In this document: positions 11,829 through 59,318 of the stretch, piece after piece
How positions within the stretch are numbered: the stretch's first letter is position 1
Layout: every line of letters starts with the position of its first letter
From: a virus
Length of the DNA: 64,000 bases
IMG/VR virus record: IMGVR_UViG_3300045988_173968
Reading direction: 5' to 3' (one strand)
Made by a program: the position numbers and the translations under genes
Notes under the pieces: generated by a model
What the model was told of the DNA's origin: nothing
The model's input: only the letters and a program-made list of their open reading frames with translations
Databases searched by the model: none

Positions 11829-13076
11829 ATGAAATACACTTTTGGAAAGAAGGAATGTTTATTGAAGACAGTAAAAGTCTGCGACTCTATCATGGGCTCA
11901 GGCAAGACGAGTGCAGCGATACGGATGATGAACGAGGAAAGGGATAAGAGATTCATCTTTATTACTCCGTTCCTTGCTGAAGCTGACCGCATCGCAGAGG
12001 AATGCGAAAGCAGAGGTTTTACGGTTCCTGTTAAGGTTAAGGGCAGGAAACAGGAATGTCTGCACCAACTGTTGCGGGAAAAGAGGAATGTGTCCACCAC
12101 TCACGCACTGTTTCTGGACAGTACGGAGGAGACTATCCGGTTAATTGAAGAAGGCGGATACACATTAGTTCTCGACGAGGTACTTGAACTGTTCGAGAGC
12201 AAGGACATCTCGGAGGACGATGTGAACCTGTTGCAGATTGGCGGAGTAATTGAGATTAAGGAGAACGGTTCTGTTGTCTGGCTAAACGAAGAGTATGATG
12301 GTGTGTTTGCGGACTATAAGGAGATGGCACTGACTGGCGAACTTTATTACATCAATGATCGGCTGATGTTTTACTCCTATCCTGCTGATGTACTTAAGGC
12401 GTTTGAGGAAGTGTATGTGCTAACTTACATGTTCGCCGCCCAGACACAAAGATACTACTTTGACATGCGCGGTATTGGTTATGAGTACATCGGAACAAAG
12501 AAGCTGCCGGACGGGGGGTACATTTTCACCGAACGGGCGGAGGTACCTGAGTACGCTAGACACCTTAAGGAAAAGATACATATTGTGGACAGTGAGAAGA
12601 TGAACAGTGTAGGTAATGGGAAGTATGCCTTGTCTATGAGATAGTTCCAAGAGAGAGCCGAGCCGGAAGCCGTCGAGCAGATTAAAAAGAACCTACTAAA
12701 TTATTTTCAAGCAATTAGTGGTTCCAAGGCATCTGACCGCTTGTGGGCAACATACAACGTTTCCAAGGATAAGTTGCAGGGGCGTTATGGTCAAAGCTTT
12801 CTCTCCTTCAACTCTCGTGCGACAAATAGCTACAGAGACAAGACCTGTCTGGCGTATCTAGTAAATGTATTTATGAATCCATTTGAGTACAACTTCTTTA
12901 CGGCGCAGGGCGTCCAGCCAGACCAAGATGGGTATGCACTGTCTGTTATGGCTCAGTGGATCTGGCGGTCGGCTATCCGCGAGGGCAAAGACATTGAGAT
13001 TTACATACCGTCCAAGCGAATGCGAGACCTGTTGATTGCATGGTGCGATAGACTGGAGAAGGGAGAGATGCGGTAA
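11829..13076 (+). CDS. P-loop NTPase (helicase-like) with an in-frame TAG at 12642
   Basis: Walker A GSGKTS and Walker B LVLDEV. ORFs 11694..12644 and 12741..13076 are in the same frame, separated only by TAG. Start chosen at MKYTFGK. Confidence 0.55.
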
Positions 13077-13077
13077 T

Positions 13078-13470
13078 ATGGAGCCTGCTTATAAGATATT
13101 GGCCGTTGAGTTTGATGAAACCATCTTCCGGCGAGACCTGAAGACATGGAAGTACGAAGCCAACTGGGAAGTCGTACAGTACATACGGCAAAAAGCCAAA
13201 GAGGGCTGGGACATCGTTCTGATAACAAACCGTTTCAATAAGTGGACACTGAATGAGGCAATTAAGCTGTGTGAAAATGTTGATATACGGTTTTCTGAGA
13301 TCAACGATAACCCATGGTGGGTGTATGCCATTAAGGGACAGCCAAATAAGATTTACTGGAATGAGCTAATTGACCGCTGGGGTTTCCATGAGGCGAAAGG
13401 TTGCGAGATTCCCGAAGGATTTGACGAGAACTGGGGGTTAGAAGATGAGACGAAAAATATTAGCAGTTGA
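13078..13470 (+). CDS. HAD-like protein, paralog 1 (motif I reads EFDET)
   Basis: Internal ATG of ORF 13036..13470. Similar to the next gene (ILAVxFDxTxF, EGW). Confidence 0.5.
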   Translation: MEPAYKILAVEFDETIFRRDLKTWKYEANWEVVQYIRQKAKEGWDIVLITNRFNKWTLNEAIKLCENVDIRFSEINDNPWWVYAIKGQPNKIYWNELIDRWGFHEAKGCEIPEGFDENWGLEDETKNISS

Positions 13471-13792
13471 TTTTGATGACACTTTGTTTTGGACAGATTA
13501 CTACAGTTATGAATACGAGCCGAACTGGCCGGTGATCAATTATGTCCGTAAGCGCCAGAAAGAAGGGTGGATCATCATCCTGTGGACTTGTCGGTATAGA
13601 GAGGAAGCTGTGGCAGAAGCAGTAGCAAAGTGTGAAGAGTACGGGATTAAACCTGACTATGTAAATGAAAACGCCGCCCAAACGATTGAGCGGTATGGCG
13701 ACCCAAGAAAAATTTTGTGTGACGAGCTGATTGATGATACGGTTCGGCACACGGTAAAGGAGATTTATAAGAATGTAGGGAATCTATTATGA
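13445..13792 (+). CDS. HAD-superfamily phosphatase-like protein, paralog 2 (motif I DFDDT)
   Basis: ORF from the track. DxDxT motif near the N-terminus. Confidence 0.6.
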   Translation: MRRKILAVDFDDTLFWTDYYSYEYEPNWPVINYVRKRQKEGWIIILWTCRYREEAVAEAVAKCEEYGIKPDYVNENAAQTIERYGDPRKILCDELIDDTVRHTVKEIYKNVGNLL

Positions 13793-13984
13793 AAGCAATG
13801 ACGGTACCTCTCGGAAGATTGGGATGGTGAGTAAGTTTGATGACTATTGGGATATAGTCAAAAAGGACTTCGCTGTACGAGGGATAACTCCGTACTATTA
13901 CCGCTACTGGGGCGATGAGAACGAGATGACTGTTGATTTCGGGAGCTGGTCAACATTCATTAAGGTGCGGAAGGAGGAACCGTG

Positions 13985-14554
13985 ATGAACTACTATATTG
14001 CTGACACCCACTTTGGGCACCGCAATATCATCAACTTTGATGGTCGCCCTTTCCACGACATTACTGAAATGAAGCTTGCGTTGATTGCTCGCTGGAATAA
14101 ACGAGTTACCAGCGAGGATACCGTATTTATCCTTGGCGACTTTTGCTGGGGTAAGGCCCCGGAGTGGATAGAACTGCTTTCTGCTTTGAACGGCAATAAG
14201 GTTCTCATTCGTGGCAACCACGACCTGCGAAATATGCCGGCTGAGCTTCGTCATATGTTTGCCGATGTGAAGGACTACAAGGAGGTAAAGGACGGGGATA
14301 GACTGGTCATTATGTGCCACTACCCTATCCCCTGCTATAAAAAGGACTATGACCCGAATGTATACATGCTCCACGGACATGTCCACGAAACGCAGGAGTG
14401 GGCTCACACTCACACCATTGTGAGCTTTATGAAAGAATCCAATCCGGGAAAGTATCAAGGTAATGTGTACAATGTCGGAGCAATGATGGATTACATGGAC
14501 TACACTCCAAGAATTCTGGACGAAATCATTGCCGGAGGAAGCAAATATTATTAA
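13985..14554 (+). CDS. metallophosphoesterase
   Basis: Motifs DTHFGH, GDFCW, GNHD, HGHVH. Confidence 0.8.
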   Translation: MNYYIADTHFGHRNIINFDGRPFHDITEMKLALIARWNKRVTSEDTVFILGDFCWGKAPEWIELLSALNGNKVLIRGNHDLRNMPAELRHMFADVKDYKEVKDGDRLVIMCHYPIPCYKKDYDPNVYMLHGHVHETQEWAHTHTIVSFMKESNPGKYQGNVYNVGAMMDYMDYTPRILDEIIAGGSKYY

Positions 14555-14572
14555 GAAAGGACTACATAAATT

Positions 14573-14833
14573 ATGAAGTACCGAAAGCTCCCTGTTGTAA
14601 TCGAAGCATTTAAGCTCGGATCTCAGCCAACTCCCCCATGGTTCCTTAACGCTGTACGGGATGGTCGCGTACAGATGCACTACGATGAGAAATTGTGGTG
14701 TGAGGTAAATACGCTGGAAGGTATTATGACAGCTTCCCAGTGTGAAGACTACATAGTGCAAGGCATAGACGGCGAACTCTATCCTTGCAAAGCAAACATA
14801 TTTGAGAAAACATATGAGGAGGTCGTTGAATGA
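14573..14833 (+). CDS. hypothetical protein (86 aa)
   Basis: ORF from the track, coupled to the next gene. Confidence 0.55.
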
Positions 14834-15333
14834 GTGTAGTTTGTGCGAGAAAGTATGAAGATAAAATAATTATGGCTGCTGACTCGATTCTTTGCCAAGG
14901 CGATATGAAACGCACAAAAGGGGATGTCGTAAAGCTTCGCTCTATCAATGGAATGGGGATTGGCGGATGTGGGATGGCGCAGGAGATTAGCCTTATGTTT
15001 CGGTTTGCTGATACTCACCTCCCATCTTCCGCTACAGAAGCTGGAATGCAGGATTTTATCGTTGAGTTTTCCAAATAGAAGCATGGTTACGATGGAGATT
15101 ATAGTGTCGAAAATGTATATCTGATTACATACAAGGGCCATTTATTCTGTGTTGAAGATTTTCTCGTTTATGAGGTGAAAGAATACGAAGCTATCGGAGC
15201 CGGAATGTATTACGGTTTGACTGCTTTGTATCTTGGACACACGCCAAGAGAAGCCGTAAAAGTATCGTGTGACCTGTGCTGCTATGTGGCAGAGCCAATT
15301 ATTGAGGTAGAGTTCCCGAGAGAGGAGGAATGA
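14830..15333 (+). CDS. HslV/proteasome-beta-like Ntn-hydrolase homolog with an in-frame TAG at 15076
   Basis: The pattern [17 protein letters not shown]...GIGGCG...AIGAGMYYG...CDLCCYV parallels HslV (IVSVRR..VIAGDG...FAGG...AIGSGG...GDICIY). The ORF continues in frame past the TAG to the TGA at 15333. Confidence 0.55.
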
Positions 15334-15435
15334 CCAAGTGGATAACGATTACATCGTCGATGTGAATACTCGGGACGGCAGCCGATTTATGGCTGAGTAG
15401 AATGAGTACATAGAAGAATGGGAGGGTGAGCAACA

Positions 15436-18243
15436 GTGAGCTTAACTGACCAGATAAATATCTATGCCGTAGATTCTGACGCATTCTACAACGAGGAAGA
15501 ACGGGATATCAGTATTCAGCTCAATAATCTGCGCACCAGAAAGAAGAATTTGAAAGAGGAGTTACGAATTGCTGAGCAGTTTCTGGGTGGTTCCCTTCCG
15601 GAGAAGTCATAGGCTACCCGATATCGTGAGATATACCGGTTGCGTAAGGAAATTGAGATTGACCCGCCTACACAGGATGTGGTTGAGATTCTCAATGAGC
15701 AAATTGCTACCTTGACCCCTATTATCACGGGGCTCAAAAACGAGCTTAAGGATAAACTGGAGAGCCATTCCGGAATTCGCGCCCTTGACCCTCGTGCGCT
15801 CTCCCCTAAAAATGTTATATCGGTGTTTGAATCCGCCATGACAAGAGTGTTTGGCTTCGAGAAGGATCAGTTATACGATGATGTAATTGTTGTTCGGGCG
15901 TATTACTACGAGGTGCTGAAAGACATCATGCGGGATGGATTTCTTCACAATGGTGAGCGGTATGTGGTGTTTACGGCATCCGCAGGACAGATCCGAACCA
16001 AAAGAACCGTCTTTGTTAAGGAATCTCTGCTTGAGAAGCATCGTCTGACACTCATGTGTGGGCTTACGGTTGACCATATCAATGAGCTGGGCGGTGTCAA
16101 TGTCAATAAGTATCTGGCTTATTTGGCTTTGAGTAACTCTGCCACTGATATTTGGGAAGGGTTCGATATTGATAAGTCCATCGTTGTAGAAGACTTTGAG
16201 ACGCTCGTAAATGGCACCGTAGACTACATTGATGGTACTACATATGAAATCACTCGCAAGGAAATGGGCGTTCCCATAACGCACACAGATGGCTGTGGAA
16301 TGATGCTGCCGAGCATCAGTTGGAAGAACATGATGGTGCGGCTCCCATGGGTAAAGGGATTGCTCGCCTCTTTCGACTTCAAGAAGTTCATTCGAGAGGC
16401 TAATGAGAGAGAACCGGAGATAAACCATGGTCTCGTCAGAGATATCTACGGCAAAGAATGGGATATTCTGCGAGACGATATCCGTTGTATTTTCACTAAG
16501 AGTCAGTTCAAAATGTAGAAATATTACGACAATTGGCAGGATTATGTCGATAAATTTAAACATTATGGGTGTCTGGCGTGTAAGTGCAACGAAGAAGAGA
16601 GCTTCATCCCCAACGCCAAACTGAACTACCAGATGTTGCAGACTCTGACCGATATATCAGATGAGGAGTTGCGGGCTCTCGCTGAAAAGTCAGTCAAAAA
16701 GCTGGACAACATTGCAGCGGATAAGGATACCATGCTCCGAGTATTTGGTGTTAAGGACAGCAACCGAGAGAAGAATCACTTTCAGAAATGTGTCGGTATC
16801 TATAATGAACTTCTCTGCCAGGAGTATTCCAAGGAAACCTTAAAACAGATAAAAAAGAGCCTCGTCAATGACTATCGGGCGGGAAAATTTGATGTTGATG
16901 GCAAATATCTGTTTATTATTCCGGATCTGTACGCATTTTGCGAGCATCTGTTCCTTGGCATTGAAGTGCCGCAGGGGCTGCTTAAGGACGGTGAAGTGTC
17001 GGCAAGAGTGTTCGCCAAGCGGGAGAAGCTGGATTGCCTGCGGAGTCCACACCTCTACCGCGAGCATGGTGTTCGCCGTAATGTGGTCAACGAGGATACG
17101 AAGAAGTGGTTCCGTACTGATGCTCTTTATACAAGCTCTTATGATTTAATTAGCAAATTATTGCAATTCGATTGCGACGGAGATAAGAGCTTAGTGGTCG
17201 CTGACGAACTATTTGTCAGCATAGCAGAACGAAACATGCATGGTATTGTCCCCCTCTATTACGAGATGGCGAAGGCGGGACAGATGCATATTGACAATAT
17301 GAAGATCTACGATGGTTTGCAGGCTGCCTACAGCGGTGGCAATATCGGTGAGATCAGCAATACTATTACGAAGATTTGGAACAGTGGCGAAATGACGCAG
17401 GATAAACTTGATGTGATTAAGTGGTTATGCTTCGAGAATAATGCAACAATTGATTACGCAAAAACATTGTAGAAGCCCATCCGCCCACATTATGTTGATA
17501 AAGCCATTAAATCCTGCGCCAACTATAAGCCACCCCAATTCTTTATTTACGCTAAAGATAAAACCCAGGAACAAGTAGAACCACGCAATGACAGCATCGT
17601 CAACAAGTTGTTTGACATTATCCCCGATAAGAGAATGCGTTTTACGGCTGCCAACCTCGGGAAGTTCGATTATAAGGTACTGATGCGAAATCCCATCGTT
17701 TCTATTGACCCTCGTGTCATTGAGAAATTCAAAGATCTTGACGCCAGAAAGAACTTGTCTTTGTCTTACGGTTCCAACGAGGAGAACTATGCATTCTTCC
17801 GTACAACCGTTAGATGTGAGCTGTATGCTATTAACCCGAATGTGAACGCCGTCTGTGATATGCTTGTGGCTCACTTCTTCCGGGACAAGAAAAGTAAGAG
17901 CCTTAATACATTCTGGCTGTGCTATGGTGACATAGTGTTCCAGAATATTCGAAACAACATCGAGAAAGATTACATACAGTGCAGTTGCTGCGGCAAACGG
18001 TTCTGGAGAACCTCTTATAAGAACCAGATTTGCGAGGCATGCATTGAGAAGATGTCTAATCCAAATCTGCCAAAACCAATTAGATACAAGGTAAAGGTCT
18101 GCATTGATTGTGGTAAAGAGTTCAAGACAGTTTCTACCGCAAGACGAGCTTGTCGTTGCACCGAGTGTAGCAAAATACGGAAGAGGAAAAATACAGCTAA
18201 GCGCGTATCACTCTTCCGGAGCAAAGAAAGTAACGCTTTATAA
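15436..18243 (+). CDS. single-subunit two-barrel RNA polymerase (YonO / cellular RdRP-like) with in-frame TAGs at 15610, 16516 and 17470
   Basis: GTG start after GGGAGGGTGA. Motifs YVVFTASAGQIRTKRTVFV, LRSPHLYREHG and the catalytic FDCDGDKSLV (DxDGD). Four track ORFs lie in one frame, separated only by TAG. C-terminal CxxC zinc ribbons. Confidence 0.75.
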
Positions 18244-18929: not shown

Positions 18930-20213
18930 ATGATAGATTTCAAGAGAAAGGAAAACGAAACAGAAAATCAGTACCTGTGGCGGGTTGGCGTAGCTATTGA
19001 AAATGGTTCTGCTGGACTGACATAGGATGAGGCTGCTCCGCTTATCAATAAGGAATGGCGCGAAGATGAATCTGAATATCGTACATCTTCTGCTTACCGT
19101 AAGCCGGTGCAGTATGCCCTCCGTTTTATGGAGGACGGTGTGTTTGATGGCAAGAAGGATGGATTGTCCGAAGAACTAATCGAACAGAAATACGAGCTGA
19201 CCAAGGAGCGTATGCGTCTGCGTGATGAGCGTCGAGCAATCAACGACCGCCTGCGGTCTGCCGCTCGCTTAGATCACCGTCTGGATTACCTCGGTGAACT
19301 TATTGAGAGCAATGGCCATGCGTCTTTTGGCAATATCCAGTTGCCGGAGCAGAGAACTATCAATCGCCGTAAGGCTGACATTATTGTTTCTTTGGCTGAT
19401 TTGCACATCGGCGCATCATACTATAATTATAATGGTGTGTATGACAGCGAGATGGCAAAGAAACGGCTTGTAGAATACTTGTCGTATGTCAAGGAAATAA
19501 AGGATACACACGACCCAGAGAATTGCCACATCGTAATTCTCGGTGATTGCATTTCCGGCAATATACATAAGAATCTATCCGTTACGAATGGCGAGAGTGT
19601 TGTAGCACAGATTCAGCTCATGTGCGACTATGTGAGCGAGTTCTGCGGCAGAGTTGGCGAGATGTTCGGTCAGACTGGCGGCAATGTAACTATTCATTGT
19701 GTTGCTGGAAACCATACTCGTCTCGATAAGAAGGAAGATGCTCTTCACGACGAGCGCCTGGATGATTTACTTCTTTGGTATCTGAGCAGATTCTTTGCAA
19801 AGGTTCCCAATGTGTCCGTTTCCGAAGAGCGCCTCGATAACGGGATTGACCAATTCATTATTCGTGGTCGTAGCTATGTCGCAGTGCATGGCGATTTCGA
19901 CGGCTTCAACGAAGCTGGCGTATCCAAACTGGCGATGTTCCTTGGGTACAAACCAAATGTTGTACTGTATGGGCACAGGCACTTCCCTGCCATGACAGAA
20001 TGTTCCGATGTGGTAATGGTGCAGAGCGGCAGCTTGGGCGGTAGCGGGGATCAGTTCACACTGGAGCATCGGATGCGTTCAATGCCTGCTCAGTCCGTTC
20101 TCGTTGTTAATAGCGATGGCGTTGTTGCTCATTATCCTGTTAAGCTTGGTATTATTCCCTGTCTCTCCTACGACCTGGAAAAGTATCCTGCGGAGGAGGA
20201 TGATATCCTGTGA
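18930..20213 (+). CDS. metallophosphoesterase (SbcD/Mre11-like motifs) with an N-terminal HTH-like segment and an in-frame TAG at 19023
   Basis: ATG after AAGGAGG. Motifs DLHIG, LGDCISG, GNHTR, HGD, GHRH. The sequence GLT-TAG-DEAAPLINKEW fits an LTQxE HTH pattern. Confidence 0.65.
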
Positions 20214-20676: not shown

Positions 20677-21804
20677 ATGACCGCACCTACAAAGAGGAGC
20701 CTTAAGCCAGCGATTGGTGCGGCTAAGGAACCTGCTTTTGAAAAGCGAAATGAAAAGTACGAATGTGTTTGCTGCCACGAAGAAAAGAAGCCTACTGATT
20801 TCTACAAATCCCCTACTGCGGCGTTTTGGGACTACCCCGGCAGCATTACACTTGTGTGCAAGCAATGCGTCCGTAAGCAGTTTGATCGTGATGTGGATCA
20901 ATACGGTCTTGACAATGCAATTATGTTTACCTGCTATCGTCTTGACCAGCCATATATCAAGTCAACTGCAGAGGATGTTAAGGTCAACACAAACCCGTTT
21001 GATATTGGTGTTTACCTTGGCTCTGTTTCTCGTGCTGCCTATACCGGCAAATCTTTCGCGTGGTCTCTCCTTTCCGGAGAAATTAACCGTGACGATGACA
21101 ATAGTGTCAAGGAAGAGAGAGAAGATAAATGGTCTAAGCGAGACCGCCAGAATATGAACTATGTCATATCGATTATTGGGTATGACCCGTTTGATGACGC
21201 TGGCCTTAGTAATATGGACAGAAAGTATTGCTACAATGTCCTTTCATCTTACCTTAATACACCTTATATTACGGACGATTCTCACAAGATGCAGTCCGTT
21301 ATCCAGCTTACCAATACATTGTTGCAGGTTCGCAAGATTGACGAAGCAATCAACAGAGAGCAGCTGAAGGCAAACACTAATACCGATACTCTCACCAATA
21401 TGGTCATGGCGAGAAAGAACCTGCAGACCATTGTAAATGCCATTGTAAAAGACAACAATATTGCCTCGCAGTATTCCAAGGAAAAGACCGGCGGGGAAAA
21501 TACCTTGACCGGCAAGATGCGGGAGCTAACCAATAATGGCTATGAAGCAATGAAGGTTAATCTATTTGATATTAAAACCTCTGAGGCTATGAAGCAAATC
21601 GCTGATCTTAGTAACTCGAGCATCATGGAACAGCTCTCTCTAGATGCCAACGACTATACCGAAATGCTGAAAGAGCAACGCACCATGCTGACTGACCTGC
21701 GAGAAAAGGCGGATGCGCTTGAGGAGGAAAATAGACAGCTCAAGAATAATCTTGAAAATCTGATTTCGGAATCATCAGCTAAGAGAAAGCGTGGTGGTTC
21801 ATAA
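20677..21804 (+). CDS. hypothetical protein with a zinc ribbon and C-terminal coiled coil; candidate small terminase by position only
   Basis: ORF with AGAGGAG RBS. CVCC...CKQC motif. Stop overlaps the terL start (TAATG). Confidence 0.5.
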   Translation: MTAPTKRSLKPAIGAAKEPAFEKRNEKYECVCCHEEKKPTDFYKSPTAAFWDYPGSITLVCKQCVRKQFDRDVDQYGLDNAIMFTCYRLDQPYIKSTAEDVKVNTNPFDIGVYLGSVSRAAYTGKSFAWSLLSGEINRDDDNSVKEEREDKWSKRDRQNMNYVISIIGYDPFDDAGLSNMDRKYCYNVLSSYLNTPYITDDSHKMQSVIQLTNTLLQVRKIDEAINREQLKANTNTDTLTNMVMARKNLQTIVNAIVKDNNIASQYSKEKTGGENTLTGKMRELTNNGYEAMKVNLFDIKTSEAMKQIADLSNSSIMEQLSLDANDYTEMLKEQRTMLTDLREKADALEEENRQLKNNLENLISESSAKRKRGGS

Positions 21805-23630
21805 TGGAAATTTATGTGCCAACTACACCATCCGAATGGTCTCAGCGCAAGGTCGAGGAATATGAAAAGGCGGCAAAAGTAATCAATTAGGGGCGAGAAA
21901 ACCCTGTTCGCTTTGCGGAGGAAGTGTTCGGCATTGCCATGATCGACTATCAGAAGTGGTCTTTCATGGAGAGCTGGTGGCGGCCATATGTTCTTTGGCT
22001 CTGTAGCCGTTCAGCCGGTAAGACAACCGAGGCTGCAATCTTCTTGCAAACGAAGTGCTTCCTTATACCGAACTATACGGTCTGGATCTTTACAAACAGC
22101 GCCGGTCAGTCTATTGAGTGCTTCAAGAAAATCGAGGATATCGCCTTGCAGAAGATTCCTTCATTTAGAACCTGTACGGACATCTTCGCTTCCGAAATCG
22201 AGAGAAACTCCAATTCCCCTACTGGGTTTATTCATGACCCTGCGGGTCATCACTTCTCTCTGTTTAATAATTCTGGTGTGACTACCCTGTCTTCAAACCT
22301 TAACGCCATTCGTGGTAAGCGTGGTTCTATATTCTACGACGAGACTGGTTGGATGGGCAAAGAAGAATTTGCAACCACTGAACCATTCGCTTCACAGGAC
22401 GCGAGTTGGGGTATCGGCGTCTCTAAAGGCCCTAAGTATTACGAGCCGCAGGCGATGCCTTTGCAGAGACTGTACGCTAGTTCCGCAAGTGATGTGACAT
22501 ATCCGTTTTACGAGAAGTATCGTGATTTCTCTAAGAAAATGATTCTTGGGCATCCTGACTACTTCGTTTGCGATATCAACGCTAACACTATTTTAGATTT
22601 CTCTACTCTTAATGGCGAACAGATCCCTTCTCACTTACAGCGAGAAGAAATCATCCGAAAGATGGACGAAGACCCGGATATGGCAGAGCGCGAATACTTC
22701 AACAAATTCTCAAAAGGCGGCGCTCAAAACAGTGTTGTCCGTATGGAGACAATGATCCGGAACTCTTTTGTTTATCCTCCGGTTATGTGCAACGATACTG
22801 GTAAGCGTAAATTCATCTTTACATATGACCCTGCTCGCAACTTCGATGGAAGTGTCCTTTCTATTTTTGAGCTTATTGAGGACGAAAAAGTTGGATTGAA
22901 GTTGCGGTATGTGCGGTGTATTTCCTTTGTCGATACAGAAACGCGCAAGAAAACTCCATTGCCGATGAACGAGCAGGTCAAAATAATCAAAAAACTGCTC
23001 GTTGATTACAACGGGCCGAACGCTGCTGACTGGGAAAATATCGAGGTTTATATCGATGCCGGTGCCGGTGGTGGCGGTATCTCTGCCGTGGCTGATAACC
23101 TTATGGAGGATTGGGAAGACAGTTCCGGGCAGGTGCATCGTGGCATGGTTGATCCGGAACATAAACAGTATGAGACTTCCAGGGCAAATTATCCTAATGC
23201 TCTTCCCTGCATTCATCTGATTGAACCTGCTTCTCATAAGCGGCTTATCTTTGATGCGCTGGAGAATATGACAAAGTTTGACCTGATTGAGTTTCCTGAT
23301 TATGACGGCAAGGATGTTATAACCATAGTAAATGCCGATGGCAGCTATCAGGATTATGAGCTTTCCTTCCCAGAGCGGCTTGCCCTGGTGCAGTGCAATC
23401 TTGCCAAAACTGAAATCACCTATATGCGAAAGTATATTTCCGCCAATGGGCAGACATCATACGATCTCGCTAAGGATAAGAAAAACACAATGCATGATGA
23501 TCGTTGTTACACCGTAGCCATGGCTGCATGGGTTCTTTCTCAAAAGAGAAGAACCGATTTAATCAATTCCAATGTCCAAACAGATGACGATTTTTCTGAA
23601 TTCTGTTTCCGGGCGCCAAAAGTAAAATAA
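21804..23630 (+). CDS. terL: terminase large subunit with an in-frame TAG at 21888
   Basis: Walker A CSRSAGKT and Walker B IFYDETGW. Nuclease motif MHDDRCYTVAMAAW. The N-terminal 28 codons join ORF 21924..23630 in frame through the TAG. Confidence 0.85.
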
Positions 23631-44710: not shown

Positions 44711-46027
44711 ATGAAGAAGAGAGTCGATATTGGTTATCACGATTATGTATATAAATTATTTTTTGAGCCAGGCTTAGATCTTGCGCCTAACGAGAGCCTG
44801 ACAAGAAATATTACCTTTCAGGTAACTGATGACTGCTGTATGAATTGCTCCTACTGTTACCAAGGTCATAAAGGTCATCGCATCATGTCTAAGGAGGTCG
44901 CCCGCAAGGGAGTTGACCTCCTTTTTGATATGTATGAGAAAAATGATAGCCCATTTATCAACAAAAAGACCAAGGCCATCATCCTCGACTTCATTGGCGG
45001 TGAACCGTTAATGGCGGTTGATGTTATCGATTACATCTGTACCTATTTTGTGCAGAAATGTCTTGAGCTTGATCACCCGTGGCTATATACATGGCGTGCC
45101 TCGATGACATCAAACGGCGCTTTGTATTTTGAGCCAGCTGTTCAGAATTTTCTGAAAAAGTTCCGTGGCAATGTGAGCTTCTCAATCACTCTTGATGGCC
45201 CTAAAGAAATTCACGATGCTTGTCGAGTTTACCACGATGGTCGTGGTAACTTTGATGATGCCTATGCTGCGATGAAGCATTTTAATTCGCACTACTACGA
45301 AGAGCTTGGCACTAAGGTTACTATTGCGCCGGAAAATCTGCATAATCTTAATAAAATCGTAGATTTCTTTCTTGCGGAAGGCATGAATCTTATTCACGCA
45401 AATTGCGTGTATGAAGCAAAGTGGACTTATGAACAAGCAAGCGTATTTTACGATGAGTTAAAAAAGATGGCCGACAAGTTGCTTGAACGCAATGATGAAA
45501 CTACTGTGAGCCTGTTTGATGAAGCGTTCTTCAGACCATTACCGCCAGAAGAAAATTCAAATTGGTGTGGAGGGGATATGAAAATGTTGGCATTTGACCC
45601 GGCTGGCATTGCATATCCGTGTTTGCGATATATGTCATCATCTCTTGGAACTGATAGAGCCCCAATTATAGTTGGCTCAGTAGATGGGCTCTTTGTTACG
45701 GAAGAGCAAAAGAACATCAAAGAATACATGGATAAAATAACACGCCGTTCTCAGTCTACGGATGAATGCTTTAATTGCCCGATAGCGGGCGGCTGTGCTT
45801 GGTGCTCCGCTTGGAATTACCAAGAAACTGGTTCCGTTAACAAGCGCAGTACAAATATTTGTGCAATGCACAAAGCCAGGTCTTTAGCTAATGTGTATTA
45901 CTGGAACAAGTGGTATAAGCAGAACGGTATCGACAAGGTATTCAAGATGTATCTGCCCAAAGAAGAAGCCTTAAAGATCATCAACGAGCAGGAATACGAT
46001 ATGCTTGCTGAACTCAGCAAAGAGTAA
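44711..46027 (+). CDS. radical SAM / SPASM-domain peptide-maturase-like enzyme (anSME-related)
   Basis: CMNCSYCY (CxxxCxxC) near the N-terminus, GGEPL, and C-terminal auxiliary-cluster cysteines (WCGG..., YPCLRY, CFNCPIAGGCAWCSAWNY...CAMHK). Confidence 0.85.
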   Translation: MKKRVDIGYHDYVYKLFFEPGLDLAPNESLTRNITFQVTDDCCMNCSYCYQGHKGHRIMSKEVARKGVDLLFDMYEKNDSPFINKKTKAIILDFIGGEPLMAVDVIDYICTYFVQKCLELDHPWLYTWRASMTSNGALYFEPAVQNFLKKFRGNVSFSITLDGPKEIHDACRVYHDGRGNFDDAYAAMKHFNSHYYEELGTKVTIAPENLHNLNKIVDFFLAEGMNLIHANCVYEAKWTYEQASVFYDELKKMADKLLERNDETTVSLFDEAFFRPLPPEENSNWCGGDMKMLAFDPAGIAYPCLRYMSSSLGTDRAPIIVGSVDGLFVTEEQKNIKEYMDKITRRSQSTDECFNCPIAGGCAWCSAWNYQETGSVNKRSTNICAMHKARSLANVYYWNKWYKQNGIDKVFKMYLPKEEALKIINEQEYDMLAELSKE

Positions 46028-47933: not shown

Positions 47934-50900
47934 GTGGCTGATAATTATAAGATAAGACTTATTGGTGAGTTGGACGCTGAAACAACCACCTCGAATATAA
48001 AAAAACAACTCGAAGGAATAAAGATTAAGGCAAACATTCTTGAAGGCGGTTTTACCGCGGAGAGTATAGAGAAGCTTTCCGAGCAAATCTCCAATGCAGT
48101 AGATGCTTATCAGAAGAAAAGCGAAAAATCTCCTATACGGGTTCCAATTAAAATCTCCAAGGTTGATGGAAGTGAAGCTATTGCTGTATTCAAGAATCAG
48201 CTTAGCAAGGAGATCAATGCTCTGAACATTGCCTCTCCTGGTACGCACGATGTGCATTTGGAAATCAAGGATTCCGAGTAGGGCAAAGAAAAGGCTGCAG
48301 CTCTTAAACAAGAAGCAAATGAGCAAGCGGCTAAGGCTGCCGAAAAAGAATTAAAGGCTCATCAGGCTACAAATACTGCTTTGCAAAATGAGATTGATAA
48401 GCTCAAGGAGAAGTTCCAAGAGCAGCAAAAAGCTAACGCAGAAGCACTGGCTGAAGAGCGTCAGGCGAGAAAAAAGGCTGAAGCCGAAGCGGCTGTGACA
48501 AACGAGAAGAAAAAGCAGCAGGAAGCTGAAGTTGCCGCTCAAGCCGCCCAAAAAAGAACTAACAAACTGATTCAGGATTCTATAAGTTTACTTAATAAAC
48601 AGACTGTTTATTTCAAGAAAAACCCCGTTGTATATAACGGAAACATACTTGACGCTAACCGTTGGAAATACCAGTTAAACAATATCATCAATGGCAAGGT
48701 TACAAATCCTGATGAAGCGGCAGATATCGTTTCAAAATATCGTCAGTGGTTTGACGGTATGAAAACATCCGCTATTGAAGCTGGCATAACTGGCGCAACG
48801 GCCATCGATAAGATAAAGCAGGCTATTACTAAGTTTGGCAGTTGGAACATCATGACTTTTGCCATCACCAAACTTAAGCGCGGCCTTGTTGATATCGTTA
48901 AAAATGTCAAAGAGCTTGATGCTGCGATGACGGAGCTGCAAAAAGTTACGGATGAAACATCCAACCGATACGAGCGCTTTGTTAAGGACGCTGCTGCTTC
49001 CGCCAAGCAACTTGGTACTACCCTTGTCGGTATCGTAAACGCTACGAGCACATTTGCTCGACTTGGCTACAATATAGATGATGCTTCTGAATATGCAAAA
49101 ATCGCAACCGTCTATAAGAATGTTGGCGACTCTATTGAAAGTATCGATGATGCTGCAAGCAGTCTTGTCTCTACGATGAAAGCATTTAAGCTTGAGAGTA
49201 TTAGTGACGCTTGGGGTATTATTGATCTGTTTAACGAGGTTGGCAACTCCTTTGCGACTACATCCGGAGACATCGGCGAAGCGATGAAGCGCTCTGCCTC
49301 TGCTTTGTATGAAGCGGGCAATACGATTGAGCAGTCTGTTGGTTTGTATACTGCAGCGCAAACGATTGTACAGGATGCTGATGTAGTTGGTACGGCATTA
49401 AAGACTCTTTCTATGCGCTTGCGTGGCACAAAAACTGATCTTGAAGCCGCTGGACTTGATGTCGATGGGCTTGCATCTTCTACATCTGCGTTAAGAGGTG
49501 AGATCCTTGCCCTTACCAATGTGGATATTATGAAGAGCGCTACCGAGTTCAAGTCTACATATGAAATGTTGCAGGATTTGAGCAAGGTATGGGATAAGCT
49601 CGAAGAAACCTCTCGTGCCAGAGTTCTTGAACTCGTTGCCGGTAAGCGAATGGCTTCCACAGTTGCGGCCATTATCAATAATTTCGACATTGCTGAAGAA
49701 GTTACTGGATTGAACTATTCCGGCAGTGCCTTAAAAGAAAATGAGAAATACCTCGAAAGTATCAATGGACGCATTGATGTACTTAAAGCTTCTTATGAGG
49801 AACTTTCTCAAACCGTGCTCGATAGTGGTCTTGTTAAAGCATTTGTAGATATCGGGAATGCAGCTATCAATGCATTTAACTGGCTTTATAGCGCAGAAAT
49901 TAGTTCTGACTCTCCGATTGGCAAATTAGGCAACATTTCAAAAAGTGTATATGAAATCAAAGATGCTATAACTTCCTTAATCCCATCCTTAGATCATGTT
50001 TCGAAGATAAAGCTGTGGGGCATCTTGCCAACAATCATTCCTGCTATTACTGCCATTTCCAATGTACTAAGCAAAGGAAATGATAACGGGTATGTACAGG
50101 TAAAAAGAGAAGGAACATCATTAAGGCTTGCTGGCACTGATCGCTGGGCGAACGAAAAGGAAGCACTATCAGAAAAAGACTACCTTGACTTCTTAGGGTT
50201 TGGAGATTATACAAAGGCTGAAAAGTATCTCAAGAAAAATAAAGATAAATTTGACGGGTTATTTAAAGAGATTCTCACATGGAAATACGATTCGACTGAT
50301 CTTGATCCAGACACGCTACTTCCAAAGAAAAAATTCAAACCCCTCTTTGAAACTGACCCTCAAAAATATCAGGAGAAGATAAAGCAATTTGGCGCTTATG
50401 CTGATGCGGCTGATCAAATTGCCCATAGCACTGAGCAAGCAGCGGAAGCTACTGATATGATGGGCGAAGCCGTTGTTCGAGACACCTTTAAATATAAAGC
50501 TTTTACTGTTGCTGCTAAAGCGGCCAATGTAGCTTTATCAACGCTTAAGAGTCTCGCTATCTCATTTGCTATTCAGCTCGCTATAAACGCGGTAGTTGCT
50601 CTTGTCGATGAACTTAAAAATGGCATGAGCAACGCTGTTGAACGAGTGAGCGATGCCAAATCTGCTCTTGAAAGTGTTGACGAAAAAATCTCCGATACAA
50701 CAAAAGAACTTGAAGAGGCTCAGAGCAGGATTAAAGATATTCAAAATCTTGGAAAACTGTCAATTACGGATGCATCTGATCTCCGTAATCTTCAGTTATC
50801 CAATGCTCAACTTCTTGTACAGCTTTCGTTGCTCGAAAAGGAAAAAGAGCTTAAAGAAGCTGAACTTAATGCTGGCAAGAATGCCGTTTGGAATCGTTTT

Positions 50901-53150
50901 CAAAATTCACGGTGGGATGGATATTACACAAGACCCCAGGAAAAGTTAACTCAAGAAGAATATGTTAACTACATGCGTGATCAGCTTCCTAAAAAATACG
51001 AGCGTATTGCGGCACTCAATCAACTGGCTTCCCAAAGAGATTTGACCGCCGCCGAGAAGGGCGAGCTAAAATTATTGCAGTCCGGGATTGAAAAGGCACA
51101 AACCAATCTTCTTGAAATTGCTGAAAACCTGAAGGATATTGACAGTGAGCAGTCTAACGCTGTCATTGCAATGATTGCATGGCTGACTTCCAACAGTAAA
51201 ACACAGCTCGAATTGTTTAATACCTACGCTGGTTCTATATCTGAGGGAGTACAGAAATCGTTGCTTGATATGGCATCGGCTGGAACCTTAACGGAAGAAA
51301 GTCTTAAAAGGGTTGTCCCCGAGCAAACGCTCGAAGCCATGGTTGCCCTTTGCGGCTCTATTGAGAATGTTATCTATCAATATGAGAACATGGCAAATAG
51401 CGGAGCGGATGTTACTGGCTCTCTGTATGCACAGGCTCGTGAGCTTGAATCTATCAACGAAGATATGGATTCCTTGCAAAGCTCATATAAAACGCTCGTC
51501 GCGGCCATAAGCGAATATAATGCAAATGGCTACATGACTGTTGATACATTGCAGTCTTTCCTGTCCTTGTCTGACGACTATATTGAGGCTCTCACGCTTG
51601 AGAATGGACAGCTTGTTCTGAACACTGATAGTATCATCGCCTTGGCAAATGCTCGACTCGACGAAATGCTTGCGAAGAAGTGGAATCAGACTGTCGAAGT
51701 TATTGATACTCTCATTAAAGAGAAGAGTAGTACCGAAGAGACTACGGAGTCTATTCAAGATAAGACATACGCCATTGAAGATATGACGGATGCCGCTCTT
51801 GAGAATTACATTGTGGAACAGCTTGGGCTTAAGAGTAACCAAGAAATCAACAGTGAACTTCGTGCGGCTATCGACTCATTTAATATCTATAAGGCGATGA
51901 TTGATTCTACTCGAAAAGGTCTTGGACGGTACACCAATACCACTTTCGGAGCCGCAGACGCAACAAAATCTCTAACCGATGCAATTAAGGATCAATATGA
52001 TAAGCTACTTGATAAGGAGAAAGCCCGTATCAATGCTGCCAAAGAAGTTCTCGAGGATAGAAAGAAAGATCTTCAAGATGAACTTGATGCCCTTGAGGAG
52101 CAGTACGAAGCCGAGGATAAACTCCTCGAATTGCAAAAGGCAAAAGACCGTTATGAAGCGGCTAAGGCGAACAAGAATACTCGGCTTTATACGGCTGATA
52201 AGGGATGGCAGTGGGTATCCGATCCACAAGAACTTGAGGACGCAAAGAGTAGCCTTGATGAACTCCACAAAGAGATGGAGCGAGATGAGGCTAAGAAGGC
52301 TATTCAAGACCAAATCGACGCTATCGATAACCTAATTGATAAGTGTGACGATGCGCTGGATATTCTCGGGCAAGACTGGGATGATTACATTGAGCATTTG
52401 AATCTTGTCGCTGAGATGCAAGGTCTTACTATGGATCAGTTGGGCGATCAGGTCGAAGGATTTGTTGACCGCGCAATAGACCTCATCAGGCAGTATTCCA
52501 ATGCCTTGAAAGAAGCAGCGGCAGCTGAAAGTATGCTCGGTAATGGCAATGGTAAAAAGAATGCCGGAGATAACGACAAGCCAGTAGAAAAGGATTTCTG
52601 GAAAGATACAAAGGCTGGCACAATAATCTCTGATGTAATTGCGAAAAGCAAGCAGCAGGAGAATTGGTATCGTAATAATCTGCCGAATTCCATTACTAAC
52701 CCATTCCCGAACGGAGTAAGTGGTGTATCGGGCACAAAGATTGCAGGTAAGATAGTAGATGATATTGCTAAGGGAAAGCGCGCTCCGCTCGCTACCGGCG
52801 TTAAGTATGTTTCCTCATCCGGTATTTACAATGTCGATGATGGAAACGGCCCAGAAATCATCGCTCGTCGCGGCAGATATACTCGACTTGAAGTTGGCGA
52901 TGGTGTTGTACCAGCAGATTTAACTGCTCGGTTATTTGCTCTTGCCAAATCTCCAGAGGAATACATTATGCCTAAAGTAAGCGGACTGTTTGCTATTTTG
53001 GCTGCCAATTTGATTGGCCGTCCCGGTCAGGTACAGCAATCTGCTCAACAGCCTATCTATATCGCTAAGGTAGAAGTTACTGGTGTTGAGGATGTTGATG
53101 GGTTCCTTGACGAATTAACTAAAATCGTAAATCGTAAGAGAAAGGTGTGA
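47934..53150 (+). CDS. tape measure protein (about 1738 codons) with an in-frame TAG at 48279
   Basis: GTG start after AAGAGGTGG. ORFs 47934..48281 and 48381..53150 are in the same frame, separated only by TAG. Very long coiled-coil protein. Confidence 0.8.
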
Positions 53151-55365: not shown

Positions 55366-55376
55366 GGTGATTAACT

Positions 55377-55676: not shown

Positions 55677-55689
55677 GGAGATGTGAAAT

Positions 55690-56121: not shown

Positions 56122-56141
56122 CGATACGGGGGTGAGTAAAG

Positions 56142-57719
56142 ATGAATTATCTTGGCTATACCCCTCTATCTGTTCCAACTTCTCCGGCGCTGAATTCTGA
56201 GTTCAGTGACATAAGGTCTGTTGAATACTCTTTGGCAGCTCATGATGCTATTGCGCAGATCAGCATTAGCATTAGTGGCTCTGATCTTGATGCACAAACT
56301 GTCCAAGTTAAAAAGAAGGGAATAGCGTATCATCCCGATAGCATCCTGTTCCCCATCGAGTATCCCGGGCTCGCGCATGCCATTCTATTTGAATCCTCGT
56401 TCATTCAATATCAAGAAAGCATTTTTGAGCCATATAATGAACGCATATCGTATAATCCTTCTCAGATTGAGTATGTTGCTTTAGACAGTGACTCCAATGC
56501 AAAAGTCAAATTCTACGCAGACAGGATAAGATACTTTGCTGGTACAAATAAAGGTGTTTATATCCTCGTTGATCGAGAACCTACCTTTGAAGAGTATATG
56601 GCTTCTATTAACGCCAAAGTAAGAATGCCTTGCTACAAAATCGAGCTTTTAAGGTGGGACGAATCTGTAATTACAAGCATCGAGCAGTATGTGGTGAATA
56701 ACAGCGGCTCAGTAGATATCACGAATGAAGAAGGTGTGCGAAGAACCTGCAGCTTTAAGTTGCACAATGTAGGTAACTTTGCCTTGGATGTAGCAAAAGC
56801 GCTGACGATTTGCAGTAAGTTCAGAGTGTCTCTTGGTGAATATATTGATGGTCTGCCGATTTACTTTACCAATGGTGTGTTTTTGTTTAATGACCCGTCC
56901 ATTGTTGGCGGATTGTCCCAGCGTGAGATCAGTGTTTCTGGCACCGATAAGTGGGCTATGTTGAATGGTCAATGTGGCGGTATTATTGAAGGAACCTATA
57001 TTGTCAAGGCTGGTTCTACGGTTGGTGATGCCATACGAAGAACGCTTAATCTTGATATTGTTAATGACCCCATTGAGCCTAATATTGATCCTCAACTTGA
57101 AAACGAAGTCGTGACATATGACATCTCGAAATCCGCTGGCAGTACGGTAGCCGATATCTTCCTTGATATCGCGCTCAATGTGAACGCCACCTGCTATTAT
57201 GATGCGAATGGACGATTTACGCTTCGCAAGATAGAAGACAGCCGGTTCCTTTGCGTAGCGCATTCTTTTGACGCTTCCGATTTCAATTATCAATCTTCAA
57301 CTAAGAAGCTTGCCTATAGCGGCATCTACAATTCTGTTCTGGTAATTGGTGAAAATATTAAGGACACCAAGACAGAAATCCGTTTTGAGTTGAAAAATGA
57401 AGATCCGTCTGATCCGCATTCCATTCAGAATTCTGGTGTTAAAAAGGTTTACAAGGTTAATGACTATTTGAACGGTATTGATACCGAGCAGAAAGCCATT
57501 GAGCGAGCGTATTACGAACTGGATCTCATTAGGAAGAACTATTCGTCCATAAACATAAACTGCGCTACACTACTTCATTTGAATGAGAACGATGTAATTG
57601 TTCTCGAAGACCCGACTGTTGGTGAGAATGCCACGGCGAGATATATCATTAACTCCATATCTCGTCCTATTGGGACAGACATTGGCTCAACGATGAGCGT
57701 ATCGAGGATCTATATGTGA
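56142..57719 (+). CDS. tail-tip or baseplate protein (525 aa; Tal-like by size and position)
   Basis: ORF with GGGGTGAG RBS. Confidence 0.5.
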   Translation: MNYLGYTPLSVPTSPALNSEFSDIRSVEYSLAAHDAIAQISISISGSDLDAQTVQVKKKGIAYHPDSILFPIEYPGLAHAILFESSFIQYQESIFEPYNERISYNPSQIEYVALDSDSNAKVKFYADRIRYFAGTNKGVYILVDREPTFEEYMASINAKVRMPCYKIELLRWDESVITSIEQYVVNNSGSVDITNEEGVRRTCSFKLHNVGNFALDVAKALTICSKFRVSLGEYIDGLPIYFTNGVFLFNDPSIVGGLSQREISVSGTDKWAMLNGQCGGIIEGTYIVKAGSTVGDAIRRTLNLDIVNDPIEPNIDPQLENEVVTYDISKSAGSTVADIFLDIALNVNATCYYDANGRFTLRKIEDSRFLCVAHSFDASDFNYQSSTKKLAYSGIYNSVLVIGENIKDTKTEIRFELKNEDPSDPHSIQNSGVKKVYKVNDYLNGIDTEQKAIERAYYELDLIRKNYSSININCATLLHLNENDVIVLEDPTVGENATARYIINSISRPIGTDIGSTMSVSRIYM

Positions 57720-57729
57720 GGTGATAGAC

Positions 57730-58014
57730 ATGACAAAGGATAATTTGGAACGCCTTACTTCCCTTCTCGATGCTAATGCCGAAAGAACCGTTAAAGATCT
57801 TCTTGAGTCTCTCGGTGTAATTGTTCGGAAACGTGGAGTAGTGGCTGAGATCGATTCGGGCAAAAACATGGCAAGCGTTTATTTCGATGGAACTTCGGAG
57901 AAGAGCTGTATGTATGCAAATCGTACTGGGGAAAGTCTGAGCGTCGGTGATATTGTGTATATCTTTTGCCAATATAATAAGGACGCTCAAGGTTAGATAA
58001 TTGTAAAGGGGTGA
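57730..58014 (+). CDS. small tail-module protein. The standard-code end is the TAG at 57996; if TAG is sense, it ends at the TGA at 58014.
   Basis: ATG after GAGGTGA. A TGA lies 5 codons after the TAG. Confidence 0.45.
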
Positions 58015-58018
58015 TAAT

Positions 58019-58816
58019 ATGGCTTCAAGCATTGTTTCAAAATTAAATTTGCCCAATGCTCCTGGTGGGCAAAATAAGAACAACCTCGTTTCAGAATATG
58101 ACGAGTATGTTAAGCTTTATAAAAACTGGAACCGTACTACTACAGGGCAGTGGACTATTGGGCCTCTTGCCTCCAGTGGTAACACATATACCACCAAGGA
58201 TTATCCGGAGGATGCCGATGTTTATAATCGCGGGCAGGAAGGAATGATTTCTCTCCTGTACAAATATGTGTTGAAGAATTATCTCATAGACGCTGATGCT
58301 CTCAAAGAGCTTTCCAGCGCCACAAATTCCGCCGTAGAAACAGCGGAAGATGCGGCATCCTCTGTTCGAGATGTTCTTTCTTCCATTGGGGCGATGGGTA
58401 TTGTCTATGATGTTTTGGTGGAAAATGCGAGTGGTACATACACTGTTACAAGTGGCTTGCCTGCCACTCTGCCCGCACGCATCTTTGACATACGATTTAT
58501 TGCTCCCGCAAATAGCATTGCAGGGAATTCGCTTAAACTCGTGACCGAAGGAAGTGTTATCTCTATTAAGATGATTAACGGGAAGGCTGTCCCAGCAAAC
58601 ATTTGGGCGAAAGGTTCAGTTGTGCAGTTGTCTATCAACAACACTGGCACTACACCTACTGCCACTCTTTCTGGCGGTGGTGGTTCTTCTGGGCACTTGG
58701 TGTCGGCTACTGCCCCTGATGATACTTCTGTGCTGTGGATTGATAGTGCAAATGGCTATTTTGCAAAGATTTGGGACGGTTCTAAATGGGTTGGCATAAG
58801 TGCCGCATGGGGTTAA
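58019..58816 (+). CDS. tail fibre or receptor-binding candidate ending LWIDSANGYFAKIWDGSKWVGI
   Basis: ORF with AAAGGGGTGA RBS. Shares the C-terminal motif of genes 41275..41805 and 41818..42312. Confidence 0.55.
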   Translation: MASSIVSKLNLPNAPGGQNKNNLVSEYDEYVKLYKNWNRTTTGQWTIGPLASSGNTYTTKDYPEDADVYNRGQEGMISLLYKYVLKNYLIDADALKELSSATNSAVETAEDAASSVRDVLSSIGAMGIVYDVLVENASGTYTVTSGLPATLPARIFDIRFIAPANSIAGNSLKLVTEGSVISIKMINGKAVPANIWAKGSVVQLSINNTGTTPTATLSGGGGSSGHLVSATAPDDTSVLWIDSANGYFAKIWDGSKWVGISAAWG

Positions 58817-58826
58817 GGAGGTCTAT

Positions 58827-59318
58827 ATGGATATCGCAAAGAAAGCATGGACAACTGACGGCTATCTCGGCCACCAGGAACAAATGCGGAACATCCCATA
58901 CGGTAAATATACGATAGGTGAAAAGGGCTGCGGATTTATCGCAGCCTTTAATGCATTAAAGGCGAGTGGGAATCCGCAAGATATTGATTCTGTATACAAT
59001 TGGTTTAACAAAACTCTATTTGCGGGAGCGCGGTGGGGTACAAACATATTCCAAATGGTCGCATTTTTAATTAAGCACAAAGCGTTTAAGGGGTTTAAGC
59101 TTACAAAGAAAGGCTATTCAGATTTAAATGTTGGCATTCTTCTTTATAATGTCGGCGGTTAGTACCATTGGGTGGCTTACTACAAGTACCCTAACTCTGT
59201 TGACAAATTCCGTTTCTTAAATGCAGGGTTCTGCTATAGCAATCGCAGATATAGTATTGATAAATTCGTTTCGGAAGAATGCAAAGGATGGCTTCGTTAT
59301 GTAATAAAGGTTGCGTGA
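58827..59318 (+). CDS. papain-fold cysteine peptidase (C39-like) with an in-frame TAG at 59160
   Basis: ATG after TAAGGAGG. GEKGCGFIAAFNALKASG (Cys) and GG-TAG-YHWVAYYK (His). The frame continues to the TGA at 59318. Confidence 0.55.

Follow-up and report, generated by a model that had tools for sequence, protein, structure and literature searches.

Several genes in the viral DNA analyzed here are interrupted by in-frame TAG codons, which raises the question of whether TAG is a stop or a sense codon in this phage and, if it is a sense codon, which residue it specifies and what reads it. The window is the whole 64,000-nucleotide stretch of IMG/VR record IMGVR_UViG_3300045988_173968 and represents about 60% of a circular phage genome of about 106 kb. 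A preliminary description of this DNA had proposed that TAG is a sense codon for glutamine, as in genetic code 15. Our analysis supports the first part of this proposal and disagrees with the second: UAG is most probably translated as tryptophan in this phage lineage, because the conserved homologue columns facing TAG are Trp and because TAG exchanges with TGG between close relatives. We assign the phage to the SPbeta-like temperate phages because its RNA polymerase, which is of the YonO type, is 47–49% identical to the enzymes of SPbeta and Clostridium phage D-1873. Near-identical genomes with 93–99% nucleotide identity to the window are present in IMG/VR, and statements on the whole genome are made on these relatives, mainly IMGVR_UViG_3300045988_150250 (106,237 bp), which was followed leftward from the window.

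All nine plus-strand TAGs reported previously (12642, 15076, 15610, 16516, 17470, 19023, 21888, 48279 and 59160) are indeed TAG codons in the frames assigned to them, and each is open on both sides. The read-through open reading frames (ORFs), at 11694–13076, 14830–15333, 15436–18243, 18930–20213, 21804–23630, 47934–53150 and 58800–59318, contain no in-frame TAA or TGA, as had been claimed; with only TAA and TGA as stops they are continuous, and no frameshift interrupts them. The P-loop NTPase/helicase-like gene (11694–13076) carries TAG at 12642–12644, residue 317, inside a phrog_2467 match that covers residues 58–450. In the HslV-like peptidase gene (14830–15333), phrog_1040 aligns with residues 1–166 across the TAG at 15076–15078 (residue 83), and this TAG is retained in relatives L005–L007. 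The RNA polymerase gene (15436–18243) contains three TAGs, at 15610, 16516 and 17470, one of them in the context ...SQFKM-X-KYYDNWQDYVDK (X is the TAG residue). The enzyme is of the single-subunit, two-barrel YonO type, as indicated by Pfam RdRP PF05183 and phrog_8308 (E = 1e-259, residues 4–872). SPbeta YonO, 47.6% identical, aligns in one tblastn piece over 93% of the length and across all three TAGs, and 24 other phage homologues likewise align in a single piece. The metallophosphoesterase/exonuclease gene (18930–20213; Pfam Metallophos_2, phrog_284) has TAG at 19023–19025, residue 32, in the context ...GSAGLT-X-DEAAPLINK. The large terminase gene, terL (21804–23630), has TAG at 21888–21890, residue 29, within a match to the phrog_2 terminase large subunit over residues 7–584. 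The tape measure gene (47934–53150) gives an ORF of 1738 amino acids when read through TAG at 48279–48281 (residue 115); this TAG is retained in L085 and L086, and its column lies within a low-complexity region. Lastly, the papain-like Cys peptidase gene (58827–59318) carries TAG at 59160–59162, which is residue 112 counted from ATG 58827 and residue 121 from GTG 58800. For its family, 144 members were found, and the 70 aligned members of 150–200 amino acids are mostly 160–167 residues long, which is the length of the read-through product (163 residues); the orthologue in L448 is uninterrupted and has Ser at the TAG column. The catalytic His said to lie directly after this TAG is present as a conserved residue, but it is found two residues downstream and not adjacent.

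We also considered whether the segments on either side of a TAG are separate proteins or whether the TAGs are assembly errors. Profile and pairwise alignments run across the TAGs, and IMG/VR and ENA assemblies of independent origin show identical TAGs. The genes are thus single by homology, are interrupted by TAG only, recur with their TAGs in independent assemblies and belong to a genome in which TAG is nearly absent as a terminator, which together support reading TAG as a sense codon in this phage. The recoding is not limited to late genes, as had been noted for the window. In near-identical relatives, leftward-transcribed genes outside the window also carry in-frame TAGs, namely those of a PD-(D/E)XK nuclease, an intein-bearing primase-helicase with three in-frame TAGs, and the N-terminal part of DNA polymerase III alpha; the NrdG gene outside the window is probably TAG-bearing as well. 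Therefore, recoding spans early, middle and late functions: primase-helicase, DNA polymerase III, RNA polymerase, terminase, tape measure and the peptidase of the lysis region.

To identify the residue, we read the position aligned to each TAG in homologues without an in-frame stop, for ten columns, some of them outside the window. The phosphoesterase column (residue 32) is Trp in 32 of 34 homologues and Ser in one, and the terL column (residue 29) is Trp in four of four. Two columns outside the window, both read in L119, agree with these: residue 73 of DNA polymerase III aligns with three Trp and one Leu, and residue 242 of the primase with Trp in the one homologue available. The NTPase column (residue 317) is divided between Trp (17) and Ser (20), with a single Gln. 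Residue 361 of the RNA polymerase is an invariant Trp in four cultured-phage YonO proteins, and in 77 IMG/VR relatives it is Tyr in 48, Trp in 17 and His in 11; residue 679 is Tyr in 72 and Phe in four, and the codon is TGG in close relatives. Among the genes that the preliminary description had singled out for alignment, terL thus gives Trp, the polymerase gives a mixture of Trp, Tyr and variable positions, and the peptidase is uninformative on the residue. A capped and pseudocounted log-odds score over the ten columns is +22.4 bits for Trp and −2.2 for Tyr, and is −10 or lower for the other residues listed, so that Trp leads every other residue by more than 20 bits. Several searches added nothing to the columns. 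The HslV-like protein and the peptidase gave zero tblastn matches in cultured phages, leaving the HslV column without a standard-code homologue, and no homologue evidence was obtained for the tape-measure column. A DNA search with the terL–portal region against cultured phages and a search for terL in species genomes also returned zero matches. A concatenated query of the HslV-like protein, the product of the gene at 57721 and the peptidase, with X at the TAGs, gave zero matches in a large protein database, probably as an artefact of the query.

The second line of evidence is codon exchange. Among genomes that are 93–99% identical there are four real TAG differences, and all are TAG/TGG exchanges, in both directions. 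At 12642 and 17470 (polymerase residue 679), both on the plus strand, the window has TAG and the relatives have TGG (L005–L007 at 12642). At 12279 in the NTPase gene, also on the plus strand, the window has TGG and relatives have TAG, and at 45092 the window has TGG and a relative has TAG. Other apparent exchanges were rejected: CAG/TAG at 13177, TCG/TAG at 50292 and TTC/TAG at 50334 are artefacts of nucleotide alignment in indel-rich stretches, and TAT/TAG at 10699 lies upstream of the true start.

These two lines of evidence decide between tryptophan and the other residues that could be assigned to TAG. Glutamine, as in code 15 of the crAss-like, Lak and other recoded gut phages, was the natural expectation, since TAG to Gln is the sole phage reassignment of TAG in the literature examined and about half of the code-15 phages likewise lack a suppressor tRNA. 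In the ten columns, however, Gln accounts for two of several hundred residues counted and falls outside the eight best scores. The motif LT-TAG-DEAA, which had been offered as an LTQxE helix-turn-helix, is the Trp column of the phosphoesterase. Moreover, no TAG/CAG or TAG/CAA exchange is found in close relatives, the single apparent case being one of the alignment artefacts above. We regard glutamine as extremely improbable. Tyrosine is suggested by the two polymerase columns in which Tyr predominates and by the fact that TAG is one step from TAT and TAC. Yet the phosphoesterase, terL, DNA polymerase III and NTPase columns contain Trp and zero Tyr, the summed score is negative, and a Tyr codon should exchange with TAT or TAC most commonly, whereas the four real exchanges, including that at residue 679 itself, are all with TGG. 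Since the neutral partners CAG/CAA and TAT/TAC are never seen, both residues are disfavored, and tyrosine too is very improbable.

If TAG is a Trp codon, it is used far less often than its synonym TGG. We counted 186 TGG and 9–11 TAG codons in plus-strand genes of the window, so that TAG makes up about 5% of the Trp codons, and there are about 15 TAG sites per 106 kb. Coding-density detectors would therefore not flag this phage. The recoding is confined to this lineage: only three of 80 YonO loci carry TAG in the polymerase, and these three are near-identical, whereas the 77 others carry none. At the same time, TAG is almost eliminated as a terminator, with at most three of about 72 genes in the window ending in TAG, compared with 16.9% (221/1305) in the 77 related SPbeta-like loci without in-frame TAG in the polymerase (P ~ 1e-3). 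The plus-strand genes end in TAA or TGA, as had been claimed, except for 57721–57996 and 61281–61913, and in both of these the reading frame continues to a TGA, five and ten codons later, respectively. The TAG at 57994–57996 near the end of gene 57721–58014 may be sense (W, then IIVKG and TGA) or a terminator. This TAG, the next five codons and the TGA are identical in L448, a relative that is 68% identical in this protein; because the conserved stretch also holds the ribosome-binding site of the next gene, the site is ambiguous. The TAG at 61911–61913 ends a plus-strand RelA/SpoT-like toxSAS gene (61281–61913; Pfam RelA_SpoT). The cassette at 61226–62664 is a recent insertion, because it is absent from close relatives, and its source was probably a standard-code background. 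On the minus strand, the glucosaminidase gene (3077–3589) is the only gene that ends in TAG (3077–3079), and its next in-frame stop is a TAA eight codons downstream. The minus-strand block does lack in-frame TAG, as had been observed, but this carries no weight: it contains about 26–30 Trp codons, for which about 1.5 TAGs are expected at 5%, and the probability of finding none is about 0.2.

We then searched for a decoder encoded by the phage. The minus-strand tRNA cluster of the window (2247–3956) consists of Ser-UGA, Ile-UAU, Pro-UGG and Leu-UAA, found by ARAGORN, and a fifth, tRNA-like gene found by Rfam; the relatives add Met-CAU, Thr-CGU and Thr-UGU. As had been reported, neither ARAGORN nor the Rfam tRNA model detects a CUA-anticodon tRNA in the window. 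The same two methods and a custom hairpin scan found none over the whole 106-kb genome of near-identical relatives. A six-frame motif scan of this genome revealed no release factor (GGQ), no class I aminoacyl-tRNA synthetase (HIGH/KMSKS), which would include tryptophanyl-tRNA synthetase (TrpRS), and no CDA-type cytidine/adenosine deaminase. Thus, neither the suppressor tRNA nor the release factor that the preliminary description had suggested looking for is found phage-wide. The leftward walk along IMGVR_UViG_3300045988_150250 arrives at the right end of the window, which closes the genome at about 106 kb; no part of it escaped the scan. The decoder is not a recognizable phage gene. Functions typical of tRNA repair are nevertheless encoded by the phage, namely an RNA ligase and PNK/HAD-like proteins.

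Several structured RNAs were considered as hidden CUA tRNAs and rejected. The tRNA-like gene at 2791–2859 (minus strand) scores 50.8 bits with the Rfam tRNA model and is missed by ARAGORN; its acceptor, D and T arms are normal, and its 5-bp anticodon stem carries a loop of only 3 nt (GAG). Five relatives retain the gene, and in two of them the loop is 4 nt long (AGGC). Incapable of decoding a codon, it may serve as a decoy or in processing or priming; as a CUA tRNA it fails because its 3–4-nt loop varies between relatives and it is not Trp-like. A second conserved structure at 2060–2250 (minus strand), just downstream of tRNA-Ser, consists of a T-arm-like hairpin stacked upon a helix of GGAA with TTCC, then CCCCCA and a terminator hairpin, with a weak Rfam match to sX4. 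It presents a CUA triloop in four relatives and GCG in the window, and it has no cloverleaf. Other hairpins with TCTA loops lie inside ORFs or in the operator-like region 11570–11624. Two Rfam matches on the minus strand fall below their cut-offs: RAGATH-36 at 2451–2592 within the tRNA cluster (55.5 bits, cut-off 70), and the HDV-like ribozyme of F. prausnitzii at 7410–7497 after a terminator (38.9 bits, cut-off 44). The link between theta ribozymes and suppressor tRNAs (PMC10879173) does not apply to the latter, which is sub-threshold and has no adjacent tRNA. Finally, a Trp-like CUA tRNA pattern matched 41 viral and 11 genome loci; its arm is not Trp-specific (some matches begin with TGGGG, like E. 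coli tRNA-Gln), and none is related to the phage or its host.

Two further explanations would leave the standard code intact. Adenosine-to-inosine (A-to-I) editing of mRNA would convert UAG into UIG, which tRNA-Trp(CCA) would read; hepatitis delta virus undergoes such editing at its amber/W site. This would account for Trp specifically and for the lack of a CUA tRNA, and the sub-threshold HDV-like ribozyme match at 7410–7497 might be taken as a hint, although it is linked to no TAG. However, no deaminase motif is found in any frame of the genome, and 16 TAG sites have no common context beyond a purine at +4, which disfavors structure-guided editing as far as sequence context, local RNA folding aside, can indicate. 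The genome-wide avoidance of TAG terminators also fits a general decoder better than site-specific editing, and we consider editing quite unlikely. Alternatively, the TAGs may be true stops, either in split and decaying genes of a defective prophage or as sites of rare near-cognate read-through that throttles expression. The sparsity of the recoding (9–11 TAGs in 64 kb), the existence of a 5.5-kb phage remnant in bacterial chromosomes and the failure to find a dedicated decoder are all in line with this. Decay, however, should also produce TGA, which is equally reachable from TGG, as well as TAA and frameshifts, none of which occurs in these genes. The TAGs are kept, and swapped with TGG, among diverged and widespread genomes (the ToxN protein of the remnant occurs in 721 blocks of the sequence collection), and TAG terminators are depleted. 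In addition, the polymerase and the primase-helicase each need three read-throughs, which a low-efficiency process could not sustain. True stops are therefore improbable, somewhat more so than editing.

With tryptophan as the preferred reading, the question of what reads UAG leads to the host. The host is an Angelakisella-like Oscillospiraceae gut bacterium (UMGS979); this lineage was assigned from the polynucleotide phosphorylase (PNPase) flanking the chromosomal remnant, which matches the PNPase of the uncultured Ruminococcaceae genome UMGS979 at 100% identity and that of an Angelakisella sp. metagenome-assembled genome at 98%. Since the replication genes require read-through, a decoder would have to be present from the onset of infection, which suggests one that is host-based or host-derived: a Trp-accepting amber suppressor, already in the host or made from host components, would read UAG. 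A tRNA-Trp variant with the anticodon CUA supplied by the host cell is, in our judgement, the likeliest mechanism, and we propose it tentatively. We doubt that an unrecognized phage factor converts the host tRNA-Trp or changes UAG to UIG in the mRNA; near-cognate reading or other means make up the remainder. The routes other than a CUA tRNA that would yield Trp include A-to-I editing of UAG to UIG, C35-to-U editing of tRNA-Trp, and near-cognate reading by tRNA-Trp after inhibition of release factor 1 (RF1). The host itself might also possess a Trp-inserting amber suppressor or weakened RF1 termination, in which case the phage would mirror a cell where TAG is free or encodes Trp. Hints of this are that none of 24 host genes ends in TAG, that read-through would precede phage products, and that the TAG-bearing peptidase gene is kept in the chromosomal prophage remnant. 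In 31 kb of UMGS979, the 24 homology-supported genes end in TAA (14) or TGA (10); the nominal P of 0.024 is not to be trusted, the 14% background being derived from crude ORF calls that include antisense ORFs. We consider a recoded host rather unlikely; if true, it would be a previously unrecognized bacterial variant of the genetic code.

Several observations weigh against tryptophan, or against its delivery by a CUA tRNA. Three columns lend it no support: residue 59 of the polymerase is variable and mostly Ala, residue 179 of the nuclease outside the window is Ile, Leu or Val, and the Cys peptidase column holds Gly (42), Ser (8) and others and no Trp. Polymerase residues 361 and 679 are, as described above, mostly Tyr in distant relatives. 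The case for Trp, which we still hold to be strong, is built from conservation and codon exchange only. On the host side, none of the 79 Trp codons in the 31 kb is TAG, which also counts against a recoded host. Two pattern scans for canonical CUA tRNAs in 185,579 species genomes gave no Oscillospiraceae among the matches listed (11 of 11 and about 85 of 115); these scans, which likewise count against a recoded host, catch canonical tRNAs only, in a single genome per species that may be incomplete. Because bacterial TrpRS normally recognizes the anticodon CCA, it is not expected to charge a CUA tRNA with Trp efficiently. The 115 genome loci that match the canonical pattern (L449–L524) include many from Nostoc and other cyanobacteria, and also Pirellulaceae and Obscuribacterales; natural CUA tRNAs are not rare outside the family of the host.

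We compared this phage with known recoded systems. Among the recoded gut phages, code 15 (TAG to Gln) is used by crAss-like, Lak and Phassvirus phages and code 4 (TGA to Trp) by Jade and Agate phages (10.1101/2021.08.26.457843; PMC9523058; PMC10607447; PMC11210395), and where the phage code differs from that of the host, only TAG to Gln and TGA to Trp have been seen (Borges et al., 10.1101/2021.08.26.457843). TAG to Gln, TGA to Trp and TGA to Gly are the only phage reassignments in the literature searched. Like the code-15 phages, this phage uses a stop codon of its host as a sense codon inside essential, otherwise intact genes and avoids the recoded codon as a terminator. Sup-CTA tRNAs are found in about half of the Phassvirus and crAss-like phages, which read TAG as Gln, and the present phage resembles the half that have no suppressor tRNA of their own. 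It differs from the code-15 phages in that its TAG columns are Trp and not Gln, in that the codon is sparse (9–11 in 64 kb) with no collapse of coding density under code 11, and in that the recoding shows no late or lysis bias and includes replication genes. Unlike the known recoded gut phages, it is an SPbeta-like temperate phage of Oscillospiraceae. It is therefore akin to the recoded phages without the Gln that defines code 15: TAG to Trp, sparse, genome-wide and with no recognizable decoder.

A reassignment of TAG or UAG to Trp appears in the literature searched only in a paper on organelles of holoparasitic plants and in an unrelated Drosophila paper. The plant case corresponds to NCBI translation table 32, the Balanophoraceae plastid code, in which TAG encodes Trp in an extremely AT-rich plastid genome. 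The reassignment beside TGG is the same as in this phage, as an analogy only and with no evolutionary relationship. Unlike that plastid, the phage has a guanine and cytosine content of 45% and resides in a bacterium with no in-frame TAG in the genes sampled. In hepatitis delta virus, the host enzyme ADAR1 edits a single amber/W site in a structured RNA, turning a UAG stop into a Trp codon and giving a longer protein; the phage, in contrast, has about 15 sites, no shared context and no deaminase that could be found. It resembles SPbeta (Spbetavirus), with which it shares the YonO-type polymerase, a large temperate genome, a polymerase-dependent late block and, in relatives, introns or inteins in replication genes. 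In the 77 other YonO loci, by contrast, the polymerase is free of in-frame TAG and about 17% of the terminators are TAG. Many YonO-encoding relatives carry tRNA-Trp(CCA), and this lineage does not.

If UAG is read as Trp here, the phage would add a natural code to the TAG to Gln and the TGA to Trp or Gly of the literature searched, and recoding could be sparse and genome-wide rather than only dense and centered on late genes. It would also pose a mechanistic puzzle, since UAG would be read as Trp without a phage suppressor tRNA even though TrpRS normally depends on the CCA anticodon. Annotation would suffer as well: with a choice limited to tables 4, 11 and 15, a gene caller would either break up about 10% of the phage genes, among them those for the polymerase, the terminase and the tape measure protein, or assign an incorrect residue. 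A natural Trp-inserting amber decoder would be of use for genetic-code expansion.

The right end of the window gives the relation of the phage to its host chromosome. In bacterial contigs as long as 311 kb, the segment 58444–63949 (5.5 kb) is present as a prophage remnant, and similarity stops exactly at 63949/63950. This position is the phage attachment junction: the bacterial contigs diverge exactly there, and phage contigs L234–L236 cross it as the window does. Rightward of 63950 the window continues with sequence from the far left of the circular genome, where a tyrosine integrase gene lies just past the junction. In the bacterial contigs, the remnant is flanked by AraC/ADH/lipase genes on one side and by CNNM-pnp-rpsO-folD-lgt on the other. 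It contains the Cys peptidase, an M23 peptidase and toxin–antitoxin modules, and it persists alone in host-lineage chromosomes from several independent metagenome assemblies (eight contigs shown); the chromosomal stretch looks like a fixed prophage remnant.

Both modules at this prophage end (61281–63666) are of the defense-type toxin–antitoxin kind. The toxSAS module (61281–62667), absent from close relatives, pairs the RelA/SpoT-like toxin with a Panacea-domain antitoxin. The second consists of the ToxN toxin (63157–63666), preceded at 63011–63113 by 3.1 perfect 33-nt repeats that are typical of a ToxI RNA antitoxin. Elsewhere, relatives L005–L007 have an insertion of 283 nt within the RNA polymerase gene (after window position 17172) and one of about 350 nt after terL (after 23503), both missing from the window; their lengths are not multiples of three, and they may be introns. 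Split yonO genes occur in SPbeta relatives too. Inteins seem to be present in genes outside the window, those of the primase-helicase and of DNA polymerase III alpha (L119 11355–14276 and 16072–18531; L091 14455–15648; L092 11657–12871). This part of the genome also codes for a reverse transcriptase, a TnpB-like protein, an E1/JAB-like pair, NrdD/NrdG, ThyX, SHMT and the RNA ligase.

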